A DNA stretch of 64,000 bases from the NCBI RefSeq assembly GCF_017348835.2, contig NZ_CP072315.1. The stretch is one strand, 5' to 3'. The notes under the pieces were generated by a model that saw only the letters and a program-made list of their open reading frames with translations, searched no databases and was not told where the DNA came from. A program made the translations under genes and the position numbers. Shown one piece after another: positions 2,311 through 51,582 of the stretch (position 1 is its first letter; each line of letters begins with the position of its first letter). This DNA is from Escherichia coli (GTDB lineage: Bacteria > Pseudomonadota > Gammaproteobacteria > Enterobacterales > Enterobacteriaceae).

Positions 2311-3519
2311 TTAAAGGGTTAGTGGTTCAATAGGCTGAAAAATGAAGGTACTGCTCATCTTTCGAATAACCGGGTGATCGCCTAACGCTTCAACCGGATC
2401 AATGTGTTCTAAGCCTGCAAAATTTACTGACGACATCTGGCTGCGACTGCATTTGCAGGACAGGATATACTCATCCTCCAGATAGCCGGTCCGCTTACTG
2501 ACCCGTTGCGTAAAGCCTGACACAATCACGTTGTCGAACGGTAGCGTATGTAAAACGATACCGACCAGGCGGAACAAGCAGCCATGGACGTGGCGGGCAT
2601 AGTTTTCGCGTACGGCTTTTTGCGTCATGGCTTTTTCCGTCAGCTCCGTGCCCCGGGCATTAACGCCGTAAATCTTATCAGGGAAATCTTCAATCTCAGC
2701 TAAATCAACATCCAGCAGGACTGCTGATAGCTCCGGCTTTACTTCAAATGCAACAAGCGTTTCACGCGGCCATTCAGTTTCTGCCAGCACACCCGCCAGG
2801 TATGATTCGAAAAACGCGGCGTCTGTCCGGAACTGCTGCCGGGCATCTGCCTGAGCCGTGGCGAGCCGTTTTTCATGTTCTTCAGCCTCAAACTTCCAGT
2901 TTGCATACTGTTCGGCCCAGGCCGTCCGTTGTTGCTGGTACCGGTGCTGTCGAAGGGTATTCTCACGCTCCACATCAATCAGCTCCTGCTGCCACCGGCG
3001 AAGATTTTCGGCGTGGCGCTCAGCTTTAGCTGATTCCGATTCAAACCATTTACCCAGAAAACTAATGCCTTCGCTCTCGGCAGGCTTTTCCGGCAATGCA
3101 AGATAGTCTGGCTTTTCTGGACGCACCGGTGCCGGAACCTGAAAAGGCGACGTTCTGTTATGCAGGTATACTGCTTCCAGCTCTGCCCAGCTGATGCCTG
3201 TTTTAGGATCCGGCGTCAGCTCGTGAATATTACGGATTGCGGTCACCGCTGACATGAGATCAGCGGCTTCCTCCTCAAGCGCCTGTCTGAGCCCCGGGTC
3301 GGTAGCCGTCCGGTTCCCACCTCCGGAACGCGCGGCCCGATCAAGCCGGGTACGGTAACTCAGCCCGGTACCGGGCAAGCCCAGATTGGCATAGGTCCCC
3401 CGGCTTCCAAAAGAAACGGAAGCACCTCTCGGCCCGACACTCAGGCTCGGTGCACCGTTACTCAGGTTGAGGCGAACACCAGGAATAATGTTGATCGACT
3501 TTCTGAATCTGAACCCCAT
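2311..3519 (-). CDS. Ter-associated protein with DUF4236-like N-terminus, function unknown
   Basis: 402-aa ORF co-directional and tightly packed with the module; glycine-rich N-terminal segment (GPRGASVSFGSRGTYANLGLPGTGLSYR). Confidence 0.55.
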   Translation of the reverse strand: MGFRFRKSINIIPGVRLNLSNGAPSLSVGPRGASVSFGSRGTYANLGLPGTGLSYRTRLDRAARSGGGNRTATDPGLRQALEEEAADLMSAVTAIRNIHELTPDPKTGISWAELEAVYLHNRTSPFQVPAPVRPEKPDYLALPEKPAESEGISFLGKWFESESAKAERHAENLRRWQQELIDVERENTLRQHRYQQQRTAWAEQYANWKFEAEEHEKRLATAQADARQQFRTDAAFFESYLAGVLAETEWPRETLVAFEVKPELSAVLLDVDLAEIEDFPDKIYGVNARGTELTEKAMTQKAVRENYARHVHGCLFRLVGIVLHTLPFDNVIVSGFTQRVSKRTGYLEDEYILSCKCSRSQMSSVNFAGLEHIDPVEALGDHPVIRKMSSTFIFQPIEPLTL

Positions 3520-3529
3520 TATGATTTCC

Positions 3530-4489
3530 TTAATGATGCTGGGTCACGGTAAGTAATCTGATTCCATCAGCGCTTTGCTCGTTCTGTAACCCATAAAAAC
3601 GAGCTCTGTCCAGAATGCCAGCCGCCCAGCGGCGATGTGTGGCGGGTTCACACATTGCTCCCTGCGACTTAAACACGGCCTGGGTAGAGTTCAGGATCCG
3701 CAGAGCGTCAGAATGCTCACCCTGAGTGACCATCAGCGCGTTTTGAATGACCTCTATCTGACCCGGGTGAATGGCCGTTTTCCCAACAAGCCCATGTGCC
3801 ATATCAAGAGCCAGCTCTCTGGCCATTACGGCATGATCGTCAATATGCTCACATACGGGCGCGGTCAGGGCAAAATCACGCGGGCCGAAGACCGAAACGA
3901 GCATTTTGATGACGTAGCCCATCGGGCTGTCATACAGCGTCAGGTCCCGGGGACGGCGAAGCGACACAACGTTCATAAGATCGTTGCCGCCGATTCGAAG
4001 CGCAATAATGCGGTCGTGGCAGGGATGTTCCACCAGACGGGTGGCCAGCTCCCGCATCTGAACCACGTCAAAGACGTCTTCTGTTTCCAGCGTTGGCATC
4101 ATGCACAGGTGAGTCCCGCCCATGATATCCCACCATTCAGCTAACGAACTGAGGGTAAATTTCGGCAACACAAACCCGTCGACAGCGGAAAGATCATAAT
4201 GCGCTTTTAACCATCTGCCCATTTCGGCATGCCGGGGGCGAATGAACACCAGAGGCCAGTCATTTTTACCCAGGCTATGCATGCTGTTACTGAGCTCGTG
4301 CAGCAGGTGCTCCAGATTTTTGAGGGCGACGGGGATGTCTGCTTCACTGACAGCATCCTCCAGGCAAATCACCAGAGAGCGCAAACCCGGGATTTTCCCG
4401 TGCAGGACGGCATCAGCAATATCTTCCCGTGTTGCAGGCATGTATAGCGTGGCTCCCAGATTCCAGGGAGAAAGACGATTTTTCATCAA
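3530..4489 (-). CDS. HpcH/HpaI aldolase / citrate-lyase beta-like (TIM-barrel) enzyme
   Basis: 319-aa ORF; start overlaps the upstream gene's stop (ATGA at 4486-4489), indicating translational coupling; fold assignment is from sequence similarity by eye. Confidence 0.6.
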   Translation of the reverse strand: MMKNRLSPWNLGATLYMPATREDIADAVLHGKIPGLRSLVICLEDAVSEADIPVALKNLEHLLHELSNSMHSLGKNDWPLVFIRPRHAEMGRWLKAHYDLSAVDGFVLPKFTLSSLAEWWDIMGGTHLCMMPTLETEDVFDVVQMRELATRLVEHPCHDRIIALRIGGNDLMNVVSLRRPRDLTLYDSPMGYVIKMLVSVFGPRDFALTAPVCEHIDDHAVMARELALDMAHGLVGKTAIHPGQIEVIQNALMVTQGEHSDALRILNSTQAVFKSQGAMCEPATHRRWAAGILDRARFYGLQNEQSADGIRLLTVTQHH

Positions 4490-36738: not shown

Positions 36739-37557
36739 GGCACTGTTGCAAATAGTCGGTGGTGATAAACTTATCATCCCCTTTTGCTGATGGAGCTGCA
36801 CATGAACCCATTCAAAGGCCGGCATTTTCAGCGTGACATCATTCTGTGGGCCGTACGCTGGTACTGCAAATACGGCATCAGTTACCGTGAGCTGCAGGAG
36901 ATGCTGGCTGAACGCGGAGTGAATGTCGATCACTCCACGATTTACCGCTGGGTTCAGCGTTATGCGCCTGAAATGGAAAAACGGCTGCGCTGGTACTGGC
37001 GTAACCCTTCCGATCTTTGCCCGTGGCACATGGATGAAACCTACGTGAAGGTCAATGGCCGCTGGGCGTATCTGTACCGGGCCGTCGACAGCCGGGGCCG
37101 CACTGTCGATTTTTATCTCTCCTCCCGTCGTAACAGCAAAGCTGCATACCGGTTTCTGGGTAAAATCCTCAACAACGTGAAGAAGTGGCAGATCCCACGA
37201 TCCTCAACACGGATAAAGCGCCCGCCTATGGTCGCGCGCTTGCTCTGCTCAAACGCGAAGGCCGGTGCCCGTCTGACGTTGAACACCGACAGATTAAGTA
37301 CCGGAACAACGTGATTGAATGCGATCATGGCAAACTGAAACGGATAATCAACGCCACGCTGGGATTTAAATCCATGAAGACGGCTTACGCCACCATCAAA
37401 GGTATTGAGGTGATGCGTGCACTACGCAAAGGCCAGGCCTCAGCATTTTATTATGGTGATCCCCTGGGCGAAATGCGCCTGGTAAGCAGAGTTTTTGAAA
37501 TGTAAGGCCTTTGAATAAGACAAAAGGCTGCCTCATCGCTAACTTTGCAACAGTGCC
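36739..37557 (+). mobile_element. IS26 copy 1 (819 bp, transposase frameshifted)
   Basis: 14-bp ends GGCACTGTTGCAAA / TTTGCAACAGTGCC; 1 bp shorter than the other copies from a change near 37198 (CCCACGATCCTCAACACGG versus CCCACGATTCATCAACACGG in other copies); no 8-bp target duplication. Confidence 0.9.
36802..37505 (+). pseudogene. tnp26: IS26 transposase gene, frameshifted
   Basis: Reading frame splits into track ORFs 36784..37314 and 37185..37505; protein diverges after KKWQIPR. Confidence 0.85.
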
Positions 37558-39079: not shown

Positions 39080-39899
39080 GGCACTGTTGCAAAGTTAGCG
39101 ATGAGGCAGCCTTTTGTCTTATTCAAAGGCCTTACATTTCAAAAACTCTGCTTACCAGGCGCATTTCGCCCAGGGGATCACCATAATAAAATGCTGAGGC
39201 CTGGCCTTTGCGTAGTGCACGCATCACCTCAATACCTTTGATGGTGGCGTAAGCCGTCTTCATGGATTTAAATCCCAGCGTGGCGTTGATTATCCGTTTC
39301 AGTTTGCCATGATCGCATTCAATCACGTTGTTCCGGTACTTAATCTGTCGGTGTTCAACGTCAGACGGGCACCGGCCTTCGCGTTTGAGCAGAGCAAGCG
39401 CGCGACCATAGGCGGGCGCTTTATCCGTGTTGATGAATCGTGGGATCTGCCACTTCTTCACGTTGTTGAGGATTTTACCCAGAAACCGGTATGCAGCTTT
39501 GCTGTTACGACGGGAGGAGAGATAAAAATCGACAGTGCGGCCCCGGCTGTCGACGGCCCGGTACAGATACGCCCAGCGGCCATTGACCTTCACGTAGGTT
39601 TCATCCATGTGCCACGGGCAAAGATCGGAAGGGTTACGCCAGTACCAGCGCAGCCGTTTTTCCATTTCAGGCGCATAACGCTGAACCCAGCGGTAAATCG
39701 TGGAGTGATCGACATTCACTCCGCGTTCAGCCAGCATCTCCTGCAGCTCACGGTAACTGATGCCGTATTTGCAGTACCAGCGTACGGCCCACAGAATGAT
39801 GTCACGCTGAAAATGCCGGCCTTTGAATGGGTTCATGTGCAGCTCCATCAGCAAAAGGGGATGATAAGTTTATCACCACCGACTATTTGCAACAGTGCC
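39080..39899 (-). mobile_element. IS26 copy 2 (820 bp)
   Basis: Both 14-bp ends present; abuts a 5'-truncated IS26 in the opposite orientation at 39900. Confidence 0.9.
39132..39836 (-). CDS. tnp26: IS26 transposase Tnp26 (Asn at position 184)
   Basis: 234 aa from [12 protein letters not shown]; contains KRIINATLG. Confidence 0.9.
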   Translation of the reverse strand: MNPFKGRHFQRDIILWAVRWYCKYGISYRELQEMLAERGVNVDHSTIYRWVQRYAPEMEKRLRWYWRNPSDLCPWHMDETYVKVNGRWAYLYRAVDSRGRTVDFYLSSRRNSKAAYRFLGKILNNVKKWQIPRFINTDKAPAYGRALALLKREGRCPSDVEHRQIKYRNNVIECDHGKLKRIINATLGFKSMKTAYATIKGIEVMRALRKGQASAFYYGDPLGEMRLVSRVFEM

Positions 39900-40207
39900 C
39901 AAACGCGAAGGCCGGTGCCCGTCTGACGTTGAACACCGACAGATTAAGTACCGGAACAACGTGATTGAATGCGATCATGGCAAACTGAAACGGATAATCG
40001 GCGCCACGCTGGGATTTAAATCCATGAAGACGGCTTACGCCACCATCAAAGGTATTGAGGTGATGCGTGCACTACGCAAAGGCCAGGCCTCAGCATTTTA
40101 TTATGGTGATCCCCTGGGCGAAATGCGCCTGGTAAGCAGAGTTTTTGAAATGTAAGGCCTTTGAATAAGACAAAAGGCTGCCTCATCGCTAACTTTGCAA
40201 CAGTGCC
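39900..40207 (+). mobile_element. Partial IS26 (3' terminal 308 bp)
   Basis: Encodes the C-terminal about 80 aa of Tnp26 with Gly at position 184 (KRIIGATLG); ends with TTTGCAACAGTGCC. Confidence 0.85.
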
Positions 40208-41044: not shown

Positions 41045-41884
41045 CTAGGCATGATCTAACCCTCGGTCTCTGGCGTCGCGACTGCGAAATTTCGCGAGGG
41101 TTTCCGAGAAGGTGATTGCGCTTCGCAGATCTCCAGGCGCGTGGGTGCGGACGTAGTCAGCGCCATTGCCGATCGCGTGAAGTTCCGCCGCAAGGCTCGC
41201 TGGACCCAGATCCTTTACAGGAAGGCCAACGGTGGCGCCCAAGAAGGATTTCCGCGACACCGAGACCAATAGCGGAAGCCCCAACGCCGACTTCAGCTTT
41301 TGAAGGTTCGACAGCACGTGCAGCGATGTTTCCGGTGCGGGGCTCAAGAAAAATCCCATCCCCGGATCGAGGATGAGCCGGTCGGCAGCGACCCCGCTCC
41401 GTCGCAAGGCGGAAACCCGCGCCTCGAAGAACCGCACAATCTCGTCGAGCGCGTCTTCGGGTCGAAGGTGACCGGTGCGGGTGGCGATGCCATCCCGCTG
41501 CGCTGAGTGCATAACCACCAGCCTGCAGTCCGCCTCAGCAATATCGGGATAGAGCGCAGGGTCAGGAAATCCTTGGATATCGTTCAGGTAGCCCACGCCG
41601 CGCTTGAGCGCATAGCGCTGGGTTTCCGGTTGGAAGCTGTCGATTGAAACACGGTGCATCTGATCGGACAGGGCGTCTAAGAGCGGCGCAATACGTCTGA
41701 TCTCATCGGCCGGCGATACAGGCCTCGCGTCCGGATGGCTGGCGGCCGGTCCGACATCCACGACGTCTGATCCGACTCGCAGCATTTCGATCGCCGCGGT
41801 GACAGCGCCGGCGGGGTCTAGCCGCCGGCTCTCATCGAAGAAGGAGTCCTCGGTGAGATTCAGAATGCCGAACACCGTCACCAT
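41045..41884 (-). CDS. sul1: Sulfonamide-resistant dihydropteroate synthase Sul1
   Basis: 279 aa from [23 protein letters not shown]. Confidence 0.95.
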
Positions 41885-42225
41885 GGCGTCGGCCTCCGCA
41901 GCGACTTCCACGATGGGGATCGGGCGAGCAAAAAGGCAGCAATTATGAGCCCCATACCTACAAAGCCCCACGCATCAAGCTTTTGCCCATGAAGCAACCA
42001 GGCAATGGCTGTAATTATGACGACGCCGAGTCCCGACCAGACTGCATAAGCAACACCGACAGGGATGGATTTCAGAACCAGAGAAAGAAAATAAAATGCG
42101 ATGCCATAACCGATTATGACAACGGCGGAAGGGGCAAGCTTAGTAAAGCCCTCGCTAGATTTTAATGCGGATGTTGCGATTACTTCGCCAACTATTGCGA
42201 TAACAAGAAAAAGCCAGCCTTTCAT
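41878..42225 (-). CDS. qacEdelta1: Truncated SMR efflux protein QacEdelta1
   Basis: 115 aa [27 protein letters not shown]…. Confidence 0.95.
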
Positions 42226-42335
42226 GATATATCTCCCAATTTGTGTAGGGCTTATTATGCACGCTTAAAAATAATAAAAGCAGACTTGACCTGATAGTTT
42301 GGCTGTGAGCAATTATGTGCTTAGTGCATCTAACG
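42223..42335 (-). repeat. About 110-bp direct repeat, copy A (start of 3'-conserved segment upstream of qacEdelta1)
   Basis: CCCAATTTGTGTAGGGCTTATTATGCACGCTTAAAAATAATAAAAGCAGACTTGACCTGATAGTTTGGCTGTGAGCAATTATGTGCTTAGTGCATCTAACG. Confidence 0.9.
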
Positions 42336-42341
42336 CCTGAA

Positions 42342-43187
42342 TTAAGCTGCGCCGCGAAGCGGCGTCGGCTTGAATGAACTGTTAGACATCATTGGCGTGG
42401 AGCCGAGCAGACTGGCGGCTTCGTGCTTCACAAAGTAAATGAACGCAGTCAACTGATCAGCGCGTGAGGCCAAGCAATCCATCCCTTGTCCAAGGTAAGC
42501 CTGCTGGGCTTCAAGCAGCACGGGCTGATGTTGGACGGGCAGGCGTTCCATTACCCAGTTGGCAGCTACATCCTTCGGCGCGATCTTGCCGGTTGCTGCG
42601 CTGTACCAAATGCGAGACAAAGTAAGCACTACATTCCGCTCGTCGCCTGCCCAATCCGGTTGTGAGTTCCATAGTTTCAAGGTGTCGGCCAGTGCTTTGA
42701 ATAGATCGCTTTCCGGGACTGAGTTGAAGAAATCTTCCGCGGCCGAACCTGCCAAGGCAAGGCTGTGTTGCCTTGCTTTAGTTAGCAGAATAGCCAGATC
42801 AACATCGGTTGTCGCGGGCTCGAAGATGCCCGCAAGAATGTCCTTGCGCTGCCACTCCCCGAATTGCAGTTCCCGTCTGGCTGGATAACGCCAAGGAACA
42901 ACATCGCCGTACACGACGATGGTAACTTCCAAGGCACGGAGAGCTTCACTTTGGCCGGGAGAAGCGGAAACTTCCAGGAAATCTACGAACAGAGCCTGCC
43001 GCACAGTCTCATCGAGCTGTGCAGTCACAGTAACCAGCAAATCAATATCACTGCATGGCTTCAGGCCACCGTCGAGTGCAGAGCCGTACAAATGCACGGC
43101 CAGCAACGTCGATCCCAGATGATGCTCGATGACGTTGAGTGCCTGTGATAGCTGTACCGAAATCTCGGCGGGCACTGCGTTGCTCAT
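42342..43187 (-). CDS. aadA16: Aminoglycoside (3'')(9) adenylyltransferase, aadA16-type
   Basis: 281 aa from MSNAVPAEISVQ; C-terminus …MSNSSFKPTPLRGAA reads into the attC region; allele assignment is from the array context and my recollection of the gene length. Confidence 0.8.
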   Translation of the reverse strand: MSNAVPAEISVQLSQALNVIEHHLGSTLLAVHLYGSALDGGLKPCSDIDLLVTVTAQLDETVRQALFVDFLEVSASPGQSEALRALEVTIVVYGDVVPWRYPARRELQFGEWQRKDILAGIFEPATTDVDLAILLTKARQHSLALAGSAAEDFFNSVPESDLFKALADTLKLWNSQPDWAGDERNVVLTLSRIWYSAATGKIAPKDVAANWVMERLPVQHQPVLLEAQQAYLGQGMDCLASRADQLTAFIYFVKHEAASLLGSTPMMSNSSFKPTPLRGAA

Positions 43188-43299
43188 GATGTCTAACTCC
43201 CAATTTGTGTAGGGCTTATTATGCACGCTTAAAAATAATAAAAGCAGACTTGACCTGATAGTTTGGCTGTGAGCAATTATGTGCTTAGTGCATCTAACG
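43186..43299 (-). repeat. About 110-bp direct repeat, copy B (5' region of the aadA16 cassette)
   Basis: Near-identical to copy A; supplies the MSNA start of aadA16. Confidence 0.9.
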
Positions 43300-43367
43300 C
43301 CGCTAAGCAGCGGCACATTTTGCGTTTTGAGCGCAGCGAAGCAAAATGTGTCCGATGGCTTGGATGG

Positions 43368-43841
43368 TTAACCCCTTTGCCAGATTTGATAGCGATAATT
43401 TATATTTGAATGAAATTCCTGCTCGAACACCACATTGAACTCTTTGGGGATTTCCGGAAAGAAAACATTGCCCTCTGGCTCGGAATCTATTGTCGAGATA
43501 TGTAGCGTGTCGGCATGGGCGATCAGACTCTTGTAGATCTCTCCACCACCAGAAACAACAACATGGTTCGTAAGAGTCTTTAGCTCCCTCATTGCTGCTT
43601 CTATAGATGGAAACACAACCACATCATCGTTAGTAGCTACCGATCCTGAGCGGCTGACAACTGCATACTTTCTATTTGGGAGAGCCCCCATTGCCTCAAA
43701 TGTTTTACGGCCGACTAAGAGCCATTGATTGTAAGTTATTGCTTTAAAAAGCAGCTGCTCACCTTTAGCGTTCCACGGGATATCCGAGCCGCAGCCAATA
43801 ACCCCATTTCTTGCTTTTGCAGCCATTAGTGATATTTTCAC
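43368..43841 (-). CDS. dfrA27: Trimethoprim-resistant dihydrofolate reductase, dfrA27-type
   Basis: 157 aa from a GTG start (V)[22 protein letters not shown]…; 474 bp. Confidence 0.8.
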
Positions 43842-43973
43842 GATACTCCTTTGGGTTAACGCCGCCATAAACGGCGACAGGGTGGCGCGCCTATTGCGCA
43901 TAAAATGGCGAAGCCATGCGCAACAGGCGCGGAATCTCTGGCGTCCGGTTTGATGGCTTTGTTATGCAAAGGA

Positions 43974-44426
43974 CTAGTCTTCAATGACGTGTAAACCACG
44001 GCGCTTTAAGTCCTCCAACGAATCCAACATTCCCCTTATTAATTCAACAGGATGCCCCTCCCAGTCTTCAACAACGCCAACAATTCTCAAGGGTTCGCAG
44101 GTTCTATAGGACTGTGTTGGATTACCGGGAAATCTTTTGTTCGTAAGATTCGGATCGTCTTCGAACGGTCCTGTTGGCTCAACTATGTATATGTAGCCGC
44201 GACCCTCGAGGCCAGACAGTGACATAGCAAGTTCAGCTCCCCAAACTGCTGGCTCCATCAAGGCTGAAAAGTAGATGTGCTTAAGAATACGACCGTCCTC
44301 GAAATGAGAGATGAACCCTGTGGTTAGCAAGTCACCAATCGCCAAATTGGCTTTGGTTCCATGATAGAACGGTCCTTGCACCTGCTTGTAATTATCATGA
44401 GAGATGGGAATCCAATCTTTTACCAT
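43974..44426 (-). CDS. arr-3: Rifampin ADP-ribosyltransferase Arr-3
   Basis: 150 aa MVKDWIPISHDNYKQVQGPFYHGTKANL…. Confidence 0.9.
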   Translation of the reverse strand: MVKDWIPISHDNYKQVQGPFYHGTKANLAIGDLLTTGFISHFEDGRILKHIYFSALMEPAVWGAELAMSLSGLEGRGYIYIVEPTGPFEDDPNLTNKRFPGNPTQSYRTCEPLRIVGVVEDWEGHPVELIRGMLDSLEDLKRRGLHVIED

Positions 44427-44522
44427 TTTAAGACCCTTAATTGTTGGGATTTGGCTGCATAACGTTTGACATGAGGGGCGGCCAAGGGCGCCAGCCCTTG
44501 GACGTCCCCCTCGATGGAAGGG

Positions 44523-45122
44523 TTAGGCATCACTGCGTGTTCGCTCGAATGCCTGGCGTGTTTGAACCATGTACACGGCTGGACCATATGGGGTGGTTAC
44601 GGTACCTTGCCTCTCAAACCCCGCTTTCTCGTAGCATCGGATCGCTCGCAAGTTGCTCGGCGACGGGTCCGTTTGGATCTTGGTGACCTCGGGATCATTG
44701 AACAGCAACTCAACCAGAGCTCGAACCAGCTTGGTTCCCAAGCCTTTGCCCAGTTGTGATGCATTCGCCAGTAACTGGTCTATTCCGCGTACTCCTGGAT
44801 CGGTTTCTTCTTCCCACCGTCCGTCCCCGCTTCCAAGAGCAACGTACGACTGGGCATACCCAATCGGCTCTCCATTCAGCATTGCAATGTATGGAGTGAC
44901 GGACTCTTGCGCTAAAACGCTTGGCAAGTACTGTTCCTGTACGTCAGCAAGTGTCGGGCGTGCTTCTTCTCCGCCCCACCACTCGACGATATGAGATCGA
45001 TTTAGCCACTCATAGAGCATCGCAAGGTCATGCTCAGTCATGAGGCGCAGTGTGACGGAATCGTTGCTGTTGGTCACGATGCTGTACTTTGTGATGCCTA
45101 ACTTTGTTTTTGCGTTGCTCAT
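44523..45122 (-). CDS. aac(6')-Ib-cr: Aminoglycoside/fluoroquinolone acetyltransferase AAC(6')-Ib-cr
   Basis: 199 aa from MSNAKTKLG; carries both -cr signature substitutions (Trp102Arg in GDGRWEEE and Asp179Tyr in TTPYGPAVY, numbering per the usual convention). Confidence 0.9.
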
Positions 45123-45233
45123 GATGTCTAACTCCCAATTTGTGTAGGGCTTATTATGCACGCTTAAAAATAATAAAAGCAGACTTGACCTGATAGTTTG
45201 GCTGTGAGCAATTATGTGCTTAGTGCATCTAAC
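45119..45233 (-). repeat. About 110-bp direct repeat, copy C (5' region of the aac(6')-Ib-cr cassette, next to attI1)
   Basis: Near-identical to copies A and B. Confidence 0.9.
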
Positions 45234-45295
45234 TTTGTTTTAGGGCGACTGCCCTGCTGCGTAACATCGTTGCTGCTCCATAACATCAAACATCG
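45230..45295 (-). other. attI1 recombination site
   Basis: 5'-conserved-segment end sequence …GATGTTATGGAGCAGCAACGATGTTACGCAGCAGGGCAGTCGCCCTAAAACAAAGTT read on the minus strand. Confidence 0.8.
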
Positions 45296-45368
45296 ACCCA
45301 CGGCGTAACGCGCTTGCTGCTTGGATGCCCGAGGCATAGACTGTACAAAAAAACAGTCATAACAAGCC

Positions 45369-46382
45369 ATGAAAACCGCCACTGCGCCGTTACCACCGCT
45401 GCGTTCGGTCAAGGTTCTGGACCAGTTGCGTGAGCGCATACGCTACTTGCATTACAGCTTACGAACCGAACAGGCTTATGTCCACTGGGTTCGTGCCTTC
45501 ATCCGTTTCCACGGTGTGCGTCACCCGGCAACCTTGGGCAGCAGCGAAGTCGAGGCATTTCTGTCCTGGCTGGCGAACGAGCGCAAGGTTTCGGTCTCCA
45601 CGCATCGTCAGGCATTGGCGGCCTTGCTGTTCTTCTACGGCAAGGTGCTGTGCACGGATCTGCCCTGGCTTCAGGAGATCGGAAGACCTCGGCCGTCGCG
45701 GCGCTTGCCGGTGGTGCTGACCCCGGATGAAGTGGTTCGCATCCTCGGTTTTCTGGAAGGCGAGCATCGTTTGTTCGCCCAGCTTCTGTATGGAACGGGC
45801 ATGCGGATCAGTGAGGGTTTGCAACTGCGGGTCAAGGATCTGGATTTCGATCACGGCACGATCATCGTGCGGGAGGGCAAGGGCTCCAAGGATCGGGCCT
45901 TGATGTTACCCGAGAGCTTGGCACCCAGCCTGCGCGAGCAGCTGTCGCGTGCACGGGCATGGTGGCTGAAGGACCAGGCCGAGGGCCGCAGCGGCGTTGC
46001 GCTTCCCGACGCCCTTGAGCGGAAGTATCCGCGCGCCGGGCATTCCTGGCCGTGGTTCTGGGTTTTTGCGCAGCACACGCATTCGACCGATCCACGGAGC
46101 GGTGTCGTGCGTCGCCATCACATGTATGACCAGACCTTTCAGCGCGCCTTCAAACGTGCCGTAGAACAAGCAGGCATCACGAAGCCCGCCACACCGCACA
46201 CCCTCCGCCACTCGTTTGCGACGGCCTTGCTCCGCAGCGGTTACGACATTCGAACCGTGCAGGATCTGCTCGGCCATTCCGACGTCTCTACGACGATGAT
46301 TTACACGCATGTGCTGAAAGTTGGCGGTGCCGGAGTGCGCTCACCGCTTGATGCGCTGCCGCCCCTCACTAGTGAGAGGTAG
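45369..46382 (+). CDS. intI1: Class 1 integron integrase IntI1
   Basis: 337 aa [40 protein letters not shown]…. Confidence 0.95.
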
Positions 46383-46559: not shown

Positions 46560-46584
46560 GTGCAGCCGTCTTCTGAAAACGACA
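46560..46584 (+). repeat. Class 1 integron 25-bp inverted repeat IRi
   Basis: GTGCAGCCGTCTTCTGAAAACGACA (reverse complement of TGTCGTTTTCAGAAGACGGCTGCAC). Confidence 0.9.
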
Positions 46585-46800: not shown

Positions 46801-47620
46801 GGCACTGTTGCAAATAGTCGGTGGTGATAAACTTATCATCCCCTTTTGCTGATGGAGCTGCACATGAACCCATTCAAAGGCCGGCATTTTCAGCGTGACA
46901 TCATTCTGTGGGCCGTACGCTGGTACTGCAAATACGGCATCAGTTACCGTGAGCTGCAGGAGATGCTGGCTGAACGCGGAGTGAATGTCGATCACTCCAC
47001 GATTTACCGCTGGGTTCAGCGTTATGCGCCTGAAATGGAAAAACGGCTGCGCTGGTACTGGCGTAACCCTTCCGATCTTTGCCCGTGGCACATGGATGAA
47101 ACCTACGTGAAGGTCAATGGCCGCTGGGCGTATCTGTACCGGGCCGTCGACAGCCGGGGCCGCACTGTCGATTTTTATCTCTCCTCCCGTCGTAACAGCA
47201 AAGCTGCATACCGGTTTCTGGGTAAAATCCTCAACAACGTGAAGAAGTGGCAGATCCCACGATTCATCAACACGGATAAAGCGCCCGCCTATGGTCGCGC
47301 GCTTGCTCTGCTCAAACGCGAAGGCCGGTGCCCGTCTGACGTTGAACACCGACAGATTAAGTACCGGAACAACGTGATTGAATGCGATCATGGCAAACTG
47401 AAACGGATAATCAACGCCACGCTGGGATTTAAATCCATGAAGACGGCTTACGCCACCATCAAAGGTATTGAGGTGATGCGTGCACTACGCAAAGGCCAGG
47501 CCTCAGCATTTTATTATGGTGATCCCCTGGGCGAAATGCGCCTGGTAAGCAGAGTTTTTGAAATGTAAGGCCTTTGAATAAGACAAAAGGCTGCCTCATC
47601 GCTAACTTTGCAACAGTGCC
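46801..47620 (+). mobile_element. IS26 copy 3 (820 bp)
   Basis: Both 14-bp ends; no target duplication. Confidence 0.95.
46864..47568 (+). CDS. tnp26: IS26 transposase Tnp26 (Asn at position 184)
   Basis: 234 aa; KRIINATLG. Confidence 0.9.
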   Translation: MNPFKGRHFQRDIILWAVRWYCKYGISYRELQEMLAERGVNVDHSTIYRWVQRYAPEMEKRLRWYWRNPSDLCPWHMDETYVKVNGRWAYLYRAVDSRGRTVDFYLSSRRNSKAAYRFLGKILNNVKKWQIPRFINTDKAPAYGRALALLKREGRCPSDVEHRQIKYRNNVIECDHGKLKRIINATLGFKSMKTAYATIKGIEVMRALRKGQASAFYYGDPLGEMRLVSRVFEM

Positions 47621-50762: not shown

Positions 50763-51582
50763 GGCACTGTTGCAAATAGTCGGTGGTGATAAACTTATCA
50801 TCCCCTTTTGCTGATGGAGCTGCACATGAACCCATTCAAAGGCCGGCATTTTCAGCGTGACATCATTCTGTGGGCCGTACGCTGGTACTGCAAATACGGC
50901 ATCAGTTACCGTGAGCTGCAGGAGATGCTGGCTGAACGCGGAGTGAATGTCGATCACTCCACGATTTACCGCTGGGTTCAGCGTTATGCGCCTGAAATGG
51001 AAAAACGGCTGCGCTGGTACTGGCGTAACCCTTCCGATCTTTGCCCGTGGCACATGGATGAAACCTACGTGAAGGTCAATGGCCGCTGGGCGTATCTGTA
51101 CCGGGCCGTCGACAGCCGGGGCCGCACTGTCGATTTTTATCTCTCCTCCCGTCGTAACAGCAAAGCTGCATACCGGTTTCTGGGTAAAATCCTCAACAAC
51201 GTGAAGAAGTGGCAGATCCCGCGATTCATCAACACGGATAAAGCGCCCGCCTATGGTCGCGCGCTTGCTCTGCTCAAACGCGAAGGCCGGTGCCCGTCTG
51301 ACGTTGAACACCGACAGATTAAGTACCGGAACAACGTGATTGAATGCGATCATGGCAAACTGAAACGGATAATCGGCGCCACGCTGGGATTTAAATCCAT
51401 GAAGACGGCTTACGCCACCATCAAAGGTATTGAGGTGATGCGTGCACTACGCAAAGGCCAGGCCTCAGCATTTTATTATGGTGATCCCCTGGGCGAAATG
51501 CGCCTGGTAAGCAGAGTTTTTGAAATGTAAGGCCTTTGAATAAGACAAAAGGCTGCCTCATCGCTAACTTTGCAACAGTGCC
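50763..51582 (+). mobile_element. IS26 copy 4 (820 bp)
   Basis: Both 14-bp ends; lies 24 bp upstream of the mcp start codon. Confidence 0.95.
50826..51530 (+). CDS. tnp26: IS26 transposase Tnp26 (Gly at position 184)
   Basis: 234 aa; KRIIGATLG. Confidence 0.9.

Follow-up and report, generated by a model that had tools for sequence, protein, structure and literature searches.

Three copies of one short segment lie in a class 1 integron of Escherichia coli, upstream of the unrelated genes qacEdelta1, aadA16, and aac(6')-Ib-cr. What this segment is, how it came to precede different resistance genes, and whether it contributes to expression or to rearrangement of the array are the questions raised by this locus. 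The stretch analysed, 64 kb in length, is referred to as the window.

The repeated segment and its array

A repeat search of the window revealed one family of direct repeats with three members (42212-42334, 43176-43298, and 45111-45233), successive members being 964 and 1935 bp apart. Exact extension defined a 101-bp core (TTAGATGCAC...CAAATTGGGAG) that is 100% identical in all three copies on the minus strand: 45232..45132 (copy 1), 43297..43197 (copy 2), and 42333..42233 (copy 3). Identity between copies 1 and 2 runs 21 bases past the core, 123 bp in total. Copy 3 departs from the other two after GGGAG and continues into ATATATCATG, the start of qacEdelta1. All three cores open at a cassette boundary, G^TTAGAT (the caret marks the junction). 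Further full or partial copies of the leader were sought elsewhere in the 64-kb window and none were found. The original prediction described three near-identical direct repeats of about 110 bp; the three direct repeats are there, and their real length is 101 bp, or 123 bp in the case of copies 1 and 2, with full identity, far over the 90% that it had set as the limit. Its coordinates (42223-45233), quoted strings, and gene names are all correct, and the common leader upstream of the three genes is borne out by the sequence comparison.

The integron carries aac(6')-Ib-cr5, arr-3, dfrA27, and aadA16, with intI1, attI1, and Pc before them and qacEdelta1-sul1 after them, an arrangement of the In1021 type. 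These six genes, from aac(6')-Ib-cr5 to sul1, were called with family models and database annotation. On the minus strand, copy 1 directly follows the attI1 crossover, AAACAAAG^TTAGAT. Next come 21 bp that match the start of aadA16 cassettes lacking a leader (TTAGACATCATGAGCAACGCA; 45111..45131) and a repeat of the terminal 9 bp of attI1 (AAAACAAAG; 45102..45110), recognised by its match to the end of attI1 itself (45233-45245). The aacA4cr cassette proper (TTAGGCATCAC... through its attC) occupies 44463..45101, and the aac(6')-Ib-cr5 ORF (45122..44523) encodes 199 aa from an MSNA start. The arr-3 cassette (43860..44462; ORF 44426..43974) and the dfrA27 cassette (43298..43859; ORF 43841..43368) follow, the attC of the latter ending in GCGGCG^TTAGAT. 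Copy 2 is the 5' part of a 964-bp composite with the native 863-bp aadA16 cassette (42334..43196; ORF 43187..42342; attC at the 3' end). Copy 3 is the resident leader with which the 3'-conserved segment (3'-CS) begins; qacEdelta1 (42225..41878) and sul1 (41884..41045) of this segment follow it (41045..42225), all on the minus strand.

The full-length intI1 gene (45369..46382, plus strand) encodes 337 aa, with R32 and H39 present. The P2 site (45340-45365) has a 14-nt spacer and is presumably inactive. Pc (45456..45484, minus strand) is the weak form, TGGACA-17 nt-TAAGCT, with hexamers as listed in bioRxiv 10.1101/768630. The integron inverted repeat IRi lies at 46560-46584, and the integron is bracketed by an inverted pair of IS26 copies, one at 39080..39899 and the other, on the intI1 side, at 46801..47620.

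In cassette order and sequences, the array is like the published In1021 (PMC11117327, PMC5437533). Two differences are observed: the window integron has the weak PcW (-10 TAAGCT), whereas PMC5437533 gives PcH1 for its In1021, and it lies between inverted IS26 copies. The 3.3-kb array sequence is 100% identical in all 30 plasmid records listed, which are complete plasmids from many species, and 343 plasmid records cover at least 80% of the array. This identity already refutes an artefact of assembly or collapse, and, judged from the sequence, three perfect 101-bp matches cannot be due to chance. No point in support of either explanation was found, and their probability is practically nil.

Identity of the segment with qacE101

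By sequence, the repeat corresponds to the 5'-terminal 101 bp of the qacE cassette, an untranslated leader with which the 3'-CS begins. Copies 1 and 2 match the resident 3'-CS leader (copy 3) 100% over exactly 101 bp. A 101-bp segment of the qacE 5'UTR, named the qacE101 pseudo-cassette, has been described in fusion to aac(6')-Ib-cr, aacA29a, aacA29b, and aadA16, where the qacE promoter transcribes the fused genes (PMC8876359, citing Poirel 2001, Quiroga 2007, Partridge 2009, Perez-Moreno 2012, and Raherison 2017). A composite (qacE101-aadA16::IS26) is listed in In843 in PMC5437533, where In1021 appears with different qacE fragments (qacE109 and qacE30). Copies 1 and 2 equal the published qacE101 in length (101 bp), in qacE 5'UTR origin, and in partner cassettes, and the element itself is no different.

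The fusion to aadA16 is direct: at GGGAG^TTAGACATCATG, the leader meets the native cassette start, as seen in two leaderless aadA16 loci (L005 and L006). In the indirect fusion to aac(6')-Ib-cr, 21 bp of aadA16 and 9 bp of attI1 lie in between. The original prediction stated that the repeats supply identical leaders and MSNA starts to two cassettes. Both resistance genes do begin with MSNA; the MSNA codons lie outside the qacE segment, however, and come from aadA16.

The possibility that the 101-bp segment is a true cassette lacking an ORF was rejected, as it has no attC, the feature whose absence gives the pseudo-cassette its name. No inverse core site was found in the 101-bp leader, and as a single strand the leader folds less stably than shuffled sequences do (z +1.5 and +1.1). 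The attC of aadA16, used as a control, gave a good single-strand fold (z -3.5 and -4.5). Bounds at core-site crossovers together with an attC end are found in the composite 43297..42334, not in the 101-bp segment alone.

Origin of the composites

Composite 1 consists of qacE101 and aadA16 (101 + 863 = 964 bp), and composite 2 of qacE101, 21 bp of aadA16, 9 bp of attI1, and aacA4cr. Lysobacter tolerans and a proteobacterial MAG (L005 and L006) have the 863-bp aadA16 cassette immediately behind other attC sites, without the leader. Because such leaderless cassettes exist, the leader is considered to be an add-on to aadA16. They open with the 21 bp found in the aac composite. A genome scan with this 21-mer (298 Gb; ~0.14 chance matches expected) returned three loci; the third, in a Flavobacteriales MAG (L007), was rejected as an unrelated chance match.

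Both composites occur beyond this array. The qacE101-aadA16 composite is found at four array positions, after attI1, dfrA27, catB3, and aac(6')-IIa. For the aac composite, the preceding site is either attI1 or the attC of another aadA cassette, and the leader-aac junction, cut by IS26, is part of the widespread aac(6')-Ib-cr/blaOXA-1/catB3 module. A leaderless junction of dfrA27 and aadA16 was not among the 10 plasmid matches listed, all of which are in two pieces spanning 601 bp, indicating that the leader is present; 416 other records cover at least 80%. Three leader-only matches were inspected and rejected as new fusions; they are ordinary 3'-CS copies or the truncated 3'-CS of the Tn1331 type.

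A plasmid of Aeromonas caviae, pAeca2, has a form with only one leader, in the order intI1, dfrB4, catB3, leader, aadA16, and ATATATCATG-qacEdelta1. Its insertion point, G^ATAT, fits the consensus for secondary sites of IntI1 (GWTMW/GNT, and GWT cut after G). It is likely on these grounds that IntI1 inserted the aadA16 cassette into a secondary site, G^ATAT, within the 3'-CS leader. The composite cassette, able to move between arrays, would then have been freed by excision from the upstream attC to that of aadA16. A later illegitimate join of aadA16 codon 4 to attI1 would have given aacA4cr its leader and MSNA start; no intermediate of this event was identified. The secondary-site origin is suggested by one plasmid, pAeca2; the founder of the qacE101-aadA16 composite may survive in this plasmid, which could also be a derived form.

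The pAeca2 arrangement resembles known secondary-site insertions by IntI1 (aadB in RSF1010/pRAY; attG sites; bioRxiv 10.1101/2022.09.11.507474), in which a complete cassette sits at a GWT site downstream of a promoter. By analogy, aadA16 in the qacE leader would have been placed behind a promoter that then expresses it. Unlike in those cases, the target here lies within an integron. With an attC upstream of it, the leader and the cassette are therefore excisable jointly as a mobile composite.

The extra copies could instead be local duplications of the 3'-CS leader, produced by unequal crossing-over or gene conversion with neither an integrase nor a role in expression. The 100% identity of the copies is what a recent duplication in situ would leave. 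However, both ends of the segment are crossover positions of the integrase (G^TTAGAT, and GGGAG^TTAGAC at the GWT site), the composites are present in unrelated arrays and hosts, an insertion form with a single leader exists, and transcription from the segment is reported in the literature. Local duplication is thus very unlikely. It is highly probable that the copies are qacE101, that they provide the Pq promoter and take part in the gene start, that they spread from a secondary-site insertion, and that recombination between them is a by-product.

Expression and recombination

The leader may act in both transcription and translation. The literature places the qacE promoter within it (PMC8876359), and a promoter termed Pq was identified in the ~100 nt that precede qacE/qacEdelta1 and was cloned in a lacZ reporter construct (bioRxiv 10.1101/768630). 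A consensus scan of 42100-45450 and a relaxed scan showed no convincing sigma-70 promoter in the leader. Only -10-like hexamers are present, CATAAT at leader positions 17-22 and 75-80 and TATTAT at 58-63, with poor -35 elements. The promoter activity is therefore taken from the literature and is not placed at specific bases. Pq (PqacE) in the leader would add transcription to that from the weak PcW.

For translation, the leader appears to set a GGAG ribosome-binding motif 9 nt ahead of the ATG, a gap near the upper limit of what is usual. AAC(6')-Ib-cr5 owes its ATG (45122-45120) and its MSNA codons to the 21-bp aadA16 piece, and the 9-bp attI1 remnant AAAACAAAG is read as the codons KTK, just ahead of the aacA4 cassette boundary. 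The 199-aa aac(6')-Ib-cr5 product with its MSNAKTK N-terminus thus exists because the leader fusion supplies the MSNA start. The 199-aa start is reportedly the one given by Raherison in 2017.

Promoters within arrays are known from cmlA1 (PcmlA), qacI, and ereA (PMC8876359), and they likewise reduce the dependence on the distance and strength of Pc. In contrast to these, the promoter piece has here been separated from qacE and joined to other cassettes, and several copies can therefore be present in one array.

The copies are also potential substrates for homologous recombination, as they are perfectly identical and in direct orientation. A perfect repeat of 101-123 bp is well over the minimum length for RecA-dependent or slippage-type recombination. 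By geometry, recombination between copies 1 and 2 removes aac(6')-Ib-cr, arr-3, and dfrA27, that between copies 2 and 3 removes aadA16 alone, and that between copies 1 and 3 removes all four cassettes. The loss of arr-3, dfrA27, and aadA16 with aac(6')-Ib-cr retained, one of the outcomes named in the original prediction, is impossible with this arrangement.

Homologous recombination between the copies is plausible. That the repeats matter mainly in this way, deleting or amplifying parts of the array by recombination or replication slippage independent of the integrase, is possible but doubtful. The repeats are perfect, direct, and 964-2899 bp apart, and two records have the structures expected of such events. 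The same integron without aadA16, the product of copies 2 and 3, is present in E. coli pAMSH1. In Klebsiella michiganensis pCRE4_1, the 2899-bp unit is perfectly duplicated in tandem, with five leader copies, as expected from recombination between copies 3 and 1. Each repeat, however, has its start precisely at a crossover point of attI1 or attC. These variants do not discriminate between the two routes, because excision by IntI1 (attI1 x attC, attC x attC) and re-integration of the circle give identical sequences, and for the same reason PCR across repeat pairs cannot tell the routes apart. The junction of dfrA27 with the 3'-CS is also natural in unrelated arrays, so pAMSH1 may be an ancestor, not a deletion product. 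Duplication of the array is observed in only one of 72,556 plasmid records. Neither an aadA16-leader-aadA16 tandem nor a dfrA27-leader-aac junction was found among these records, and the complete array persists unchanged in hundreds of plasmids. It is rather unlikely that recombination between qacE101 copies, and not the integrase, drove the contraction (pAMSH1) and expansion (pCRE4_1) of In1021-type arrays.

The repeats are real but ordinary: they are a known pseudo-cassette in a very common class 1 integron, and none of these points alters current understanding. The origin of the MSNA codons in aadA16, the 9-bp attI1 remnant in the aac composite, and the single-leader form in pAeca2 are modest additions, some of which may already be published. 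In annotation, the segment should be labelled qacE101, not a new repeat. The leader helps explain the expression of the first and last cassettes despite the weak PcW. If recombination between the copies did drive contraction and expansion, the dosage of aac(6')-Ib-cr, arr-3, dfrA27, and aadA16 would change independently of SOS and the integrase, and the resistance levels that they confer would be unstable. In surveillance, size variants of the array and collapse in short-read assemblies may stem from these repeats.

Three copies of the qacE101 leader in an In1021 array

In the window, the repeat finder reported one family with three direct copies (42212-42334, 43176-43298, and 45111-45233), ahead of qacEdelta1 (copy 3), aadA16 (copy 2), and aac(6')-Ib-cr (copy 1), respectively. 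Read on the minus strand, the block from GTTAGATGCAC to CAAATTGGGAG is identical in all three copies in the three-way alignment. By exact extension, the common core is 101 bp with no mismatches, at 45232..45132 in copy 1, 43297..43197 in copy 2, and 42333..42233 in copy 3, all on the minus strand. Identity between copies 1 and 2 runs 21 bases further (TTAGACATCATGAGCAACGCA), and copy 3 continues after the core with ATATATCATGAAAGGC. No additional copy or fragment of the core was found elsewhere in the window. The three-repeat observation is real and exact. The coordinates and sequence strings of the original prediction agreed with the repeat finder and the alignment, and the alignment it had named as a check gave full identity over 101 bp. 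Its word "near-identical" understated repeats that are shared by three sites as identical copies.

Copy 3 is where the 3'-conserved segment (3'-CS) ordinarily starts, with the untranslated 5' portion of the qacE cassette; copies 1 and 2 repeat these 101 bp ahead of other cassettes. The element is the already known qacE101 pseudo-cassette in the common In1021 array, and its published length agrees with the segment, exactly 101 bp. It has been described as a pseudo-cassette offsetting position effects and weak Pc promoters, reported in fusions with aac(6')-Ib-cr, aacA29a, aacA29b, and aadA16 and transcribed from the qacE promoter (PMC8876359). The region up to ~100 nt ahead of qacE/qacEdelta1 was found to hold a Pq promoter, which was cloned into a lacZ reporter (bioRxiv 10.1101/768630). 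In843 is listed with the composite qacE101-aadA16, and In1021 with other qacE fragments, qacE109 and qacE30 (PMC5437533). The original prediction was right about the shared leader and start codons; the element and its reported promoter role went unrecognised. The segment is without any attC. The inverse core site is absent from the 101 bp, and their single-strand fold is weaker than that of shuffled controls (z +1.5 and +1.1); the aadA16 attC control gave z -3.5 and -4.5.

The integrase gene intI1 lies at 45369-46382 on the plus strand (ORF listing, NCBIfam models). The minus-strand ORFs match NCBIfam models for an AAC(6')-Ib family enzyme, rifampin ADP-ribosyltransferase, DfrA1-like reductase, AadA enzyme, QacE, Sul1, and a GNAT protein. 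On this strand, the aacA4cr (45101..44463), arr-3 (44462..43860), dfrA27 (43859..43298), and aadA16 (43196..42334) cassettes are followed by the 3'-CS, starting at 42333. Across its full 3.3 kb, the array is 100% identical in each of the 30 plasmid records among the matches listed, and 343 plasmid records have a coverage of at least 80%. Matching plasmids annotate aac(6')-Ib-cr5, arr-3, dfrA27, and aadA16 in it. The array is In1021 (PMC5437533, PMC11117327). Pc is the weak form TGGACA-17-TAAGCT (45484..45456, sequence reading), and the P2 spacer is only 14 nt.

Two IS26 copies in inverted orientation (39080-39899 and 46801-47620) bracket the integron, and the best-matching records are IncHI2-type plasmids of Salmonella and E. 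coli. The complete copy at 39080-39899 is abutted by a 312-bp partial copy (39896-40207). Two further copies lie at 36739-37557 (819 bp, with a 1-bp deletion; a shortened transposase is annotated there in a matching plasmid) and 50763-51582 (3 substitutions). The window thus carries four copies and one 312-bp partial inside 15 kb.

The MSNA start

The 21 bases past copy 2 are the aadA16 cassette's own beginning. In a species-representative genome scan, the 863-bp aadA16 cassette (5-6 mismatches) was found directly after other attC sites in Lysobacter tolerans UM1 and a proteobacterial MAG, both loci lacking a qacE leader altogether. The unit from copy 2 to copy 3 therefore adds up to 101 + 863 = 964 bp, and the observed spacing is exactly 964 bp. 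Past copy 1 and its 21 bases comes AAAACAAAG, which repeats the end of attI1, and then the usual aacA4 cassette start TTAGGCATCAC at 45101. This junction provides an in-frame ATG and a 199-aa product. The AAC(6')-Ib model alignment begins only at residue 17 of AAC(6')-Ib-cr5, whereas the AadA subfamily model alignment begins at residue 1 of AadA16. This difference indicates that MSNA is AadA16's own and was borrowed by AAC(6')-Ib-cr5. The distance from the GGAG at the leader end to the ATG is 9 nt for aadA16 and aac(6')-Ib-cr5 and 7 nt for qacEdelta1.

RefSeq/PGAP annotates AAC(6')-Ib-cr5, as seen in two comparison loci (L008 and L002), as a 555-nt CDS of 184 aa with an internal GTG start. At 44523-45122 (minus strand) of the window, the upstream in-frame ATG with GGAG gives 199 aa, and RGI annotation uses this 600-nt frame. 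An exact match to the TTAGACATCATGAGCAACGCA 21-mer in a Flavobacteriales MAG (DIYP01000007.1, 961-981) lies at the start of an unrelated gene and is consistent with chance, the expectation for the collection being ~0.14 matches.

Origin and spread of the composite cassettes

The native qacE leader at the insertion junction reads GGGAG|ATATATC. The site G|ATAT agrees with the IntI1 secondary-site consensus GWTMW/GNT and also with the GWT consensus of genome insertion sites, with cleavage after G (bioRxiv 10.1101/2022.09.11.507474). IntI1 would have inserted aadA16 at this secondary site within the 3'-CS leader, and the predicted founder has one 3'-CS leader with aadA16 inside it. A 48-nt query over the predicted junction, the aadA16 attC end joined to ATATATCATGAAAGG, matched one record, Aeromonas caviae pAeca2 (NZ_CP039628.1). 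Its array is intI1|dfrB4|catB3|leader (101 bp, 0 mismatches)|aadA16 cassette (863 bp, 3 mismatches)|ATATATCATG-qacEdelta1, with a single leader copy only. In this region (3061-4048), the aadA16 cassette sits exactly between GGGAG and ATATATC. The arrangement looks like a secondary-site insertion and may represent the founder of the qacE101-aadA16 composite.

If the upstream attC recombined with the aadA16 attC, leader and aadA16 would be excised together as one circle. The composite is observed after attI1 in E. hormaechei pMCR-SCNJ07, after dfrA27 in the window, and after catB3 and after aac(6')-IIa in other plasmids; these several positions are consistent with such a circle. Because attI1|leader|aadA16 reads exactly as copy 1 and the 21 bases behind it, the aac composite is best explained by an illegitimate join that linked aadA16 codon 4 to attI1 in an integron of the form attI1|aacA4cr. 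The intermediate of this join was not found. The junction so formed is very widespread: the leader-junction-aac query matched at least 2113 plasmid records with at least 80% coverage. Many of them begin at leader position 65, the IS26 cut of the aac(6')-Ib-cr5|blaOXA-1|catB3|arr-3 module, and in 18 records the aac composite lies behind a different aadA attC.

Other arrangements of the leader were observed. At the IS26-truncated leader of NZ_CP089136.1 (2990-3050), the IS26 end gives TTGCAA exactly 17 nt upstream of CATAAT (leader 75-80), a good hybrid promoter-like site before aac(6')-Ib-cr5 in the blaOXA-1/catB3 module. In NZ_MK933279.1 (3861-5234), aac(6')-IIa starts 3 nt past aadA16 without an intervening attC, in a fused cassette that likewise carries the qacE101 leader at attI1. 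The annotation in related records is a bifunctional ant(3'')-Ij/aac(6')-Ib gene. In the Tn1331-like pGR-1870 (NC_023905.1, 1800-1925), blaOXA-9 is followed by the 101-bp leader plus ATATATCATGAAA and then by Tn3-type sequence; the 3'-CS is truncated just past the qacE start codon.

Recombination between the repeats

Perfect direct repeats of 101-123 bp, 964-2899 bp apart, should be adequate for RecA-dependent or slippage-type recombination. By geometry, recombination between copies 1 and 2 removes aac(6')-Ib-cr, arr-3, and dfrA27; between copies 2 and 3, aadA16; and between copies 1 and 3, all four cassettes, leaving an empty integron. Loss of arr-3/dfrA27/aadA16, a deletion named in the original prediction, is impossible with aac(6')-Ib-cr kept.

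Deletion and duplication variants were sought in the database with synthetic junction queries. E. coli pAMSH1 carries IS26-intI1-leader-aac(6')-Ib-cr5-arr-3-dfrA27-3'-CS, that is, In1021 without aadA16. K. michiganensis pCRE4_1 (NZ_CP074450.1, 4008-9906) carries a perfect tandem duplication of the 2899-bp four-cassette unit, with five leader copies in one integron; the two units and the array of the window are all identical. It is the sole array-duplication record among the plasmids searched, and could be an assembly artefact. Neither the aadA16 tandem junction nor the dfrA27-then-aac-composite junction was found in plasmid records. The two variants fit repeat recombination without proving it. 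The start of every repeat coincides exactly with the G|TT crossover point of attI1 or an attC, so IntI1 excision or re-integration of a multi-cassette circle would give identical sequences. Since dfrA27|3'-CS is also present in unrelated Pseudomonas arrays, pAMSH1 could instead be an ancestor. Integrase-independent recombination at the qacE101 repeats is plausible but unproven, and IntI1 products would be the same in sequence.

The additions to the known picture are small, and some may already be published: aadA16 as the source of the MSNA codons, the attI1 remnant in the aac composite, the single-leader form in pAeca2, and the array duplication in pCRE4_1.
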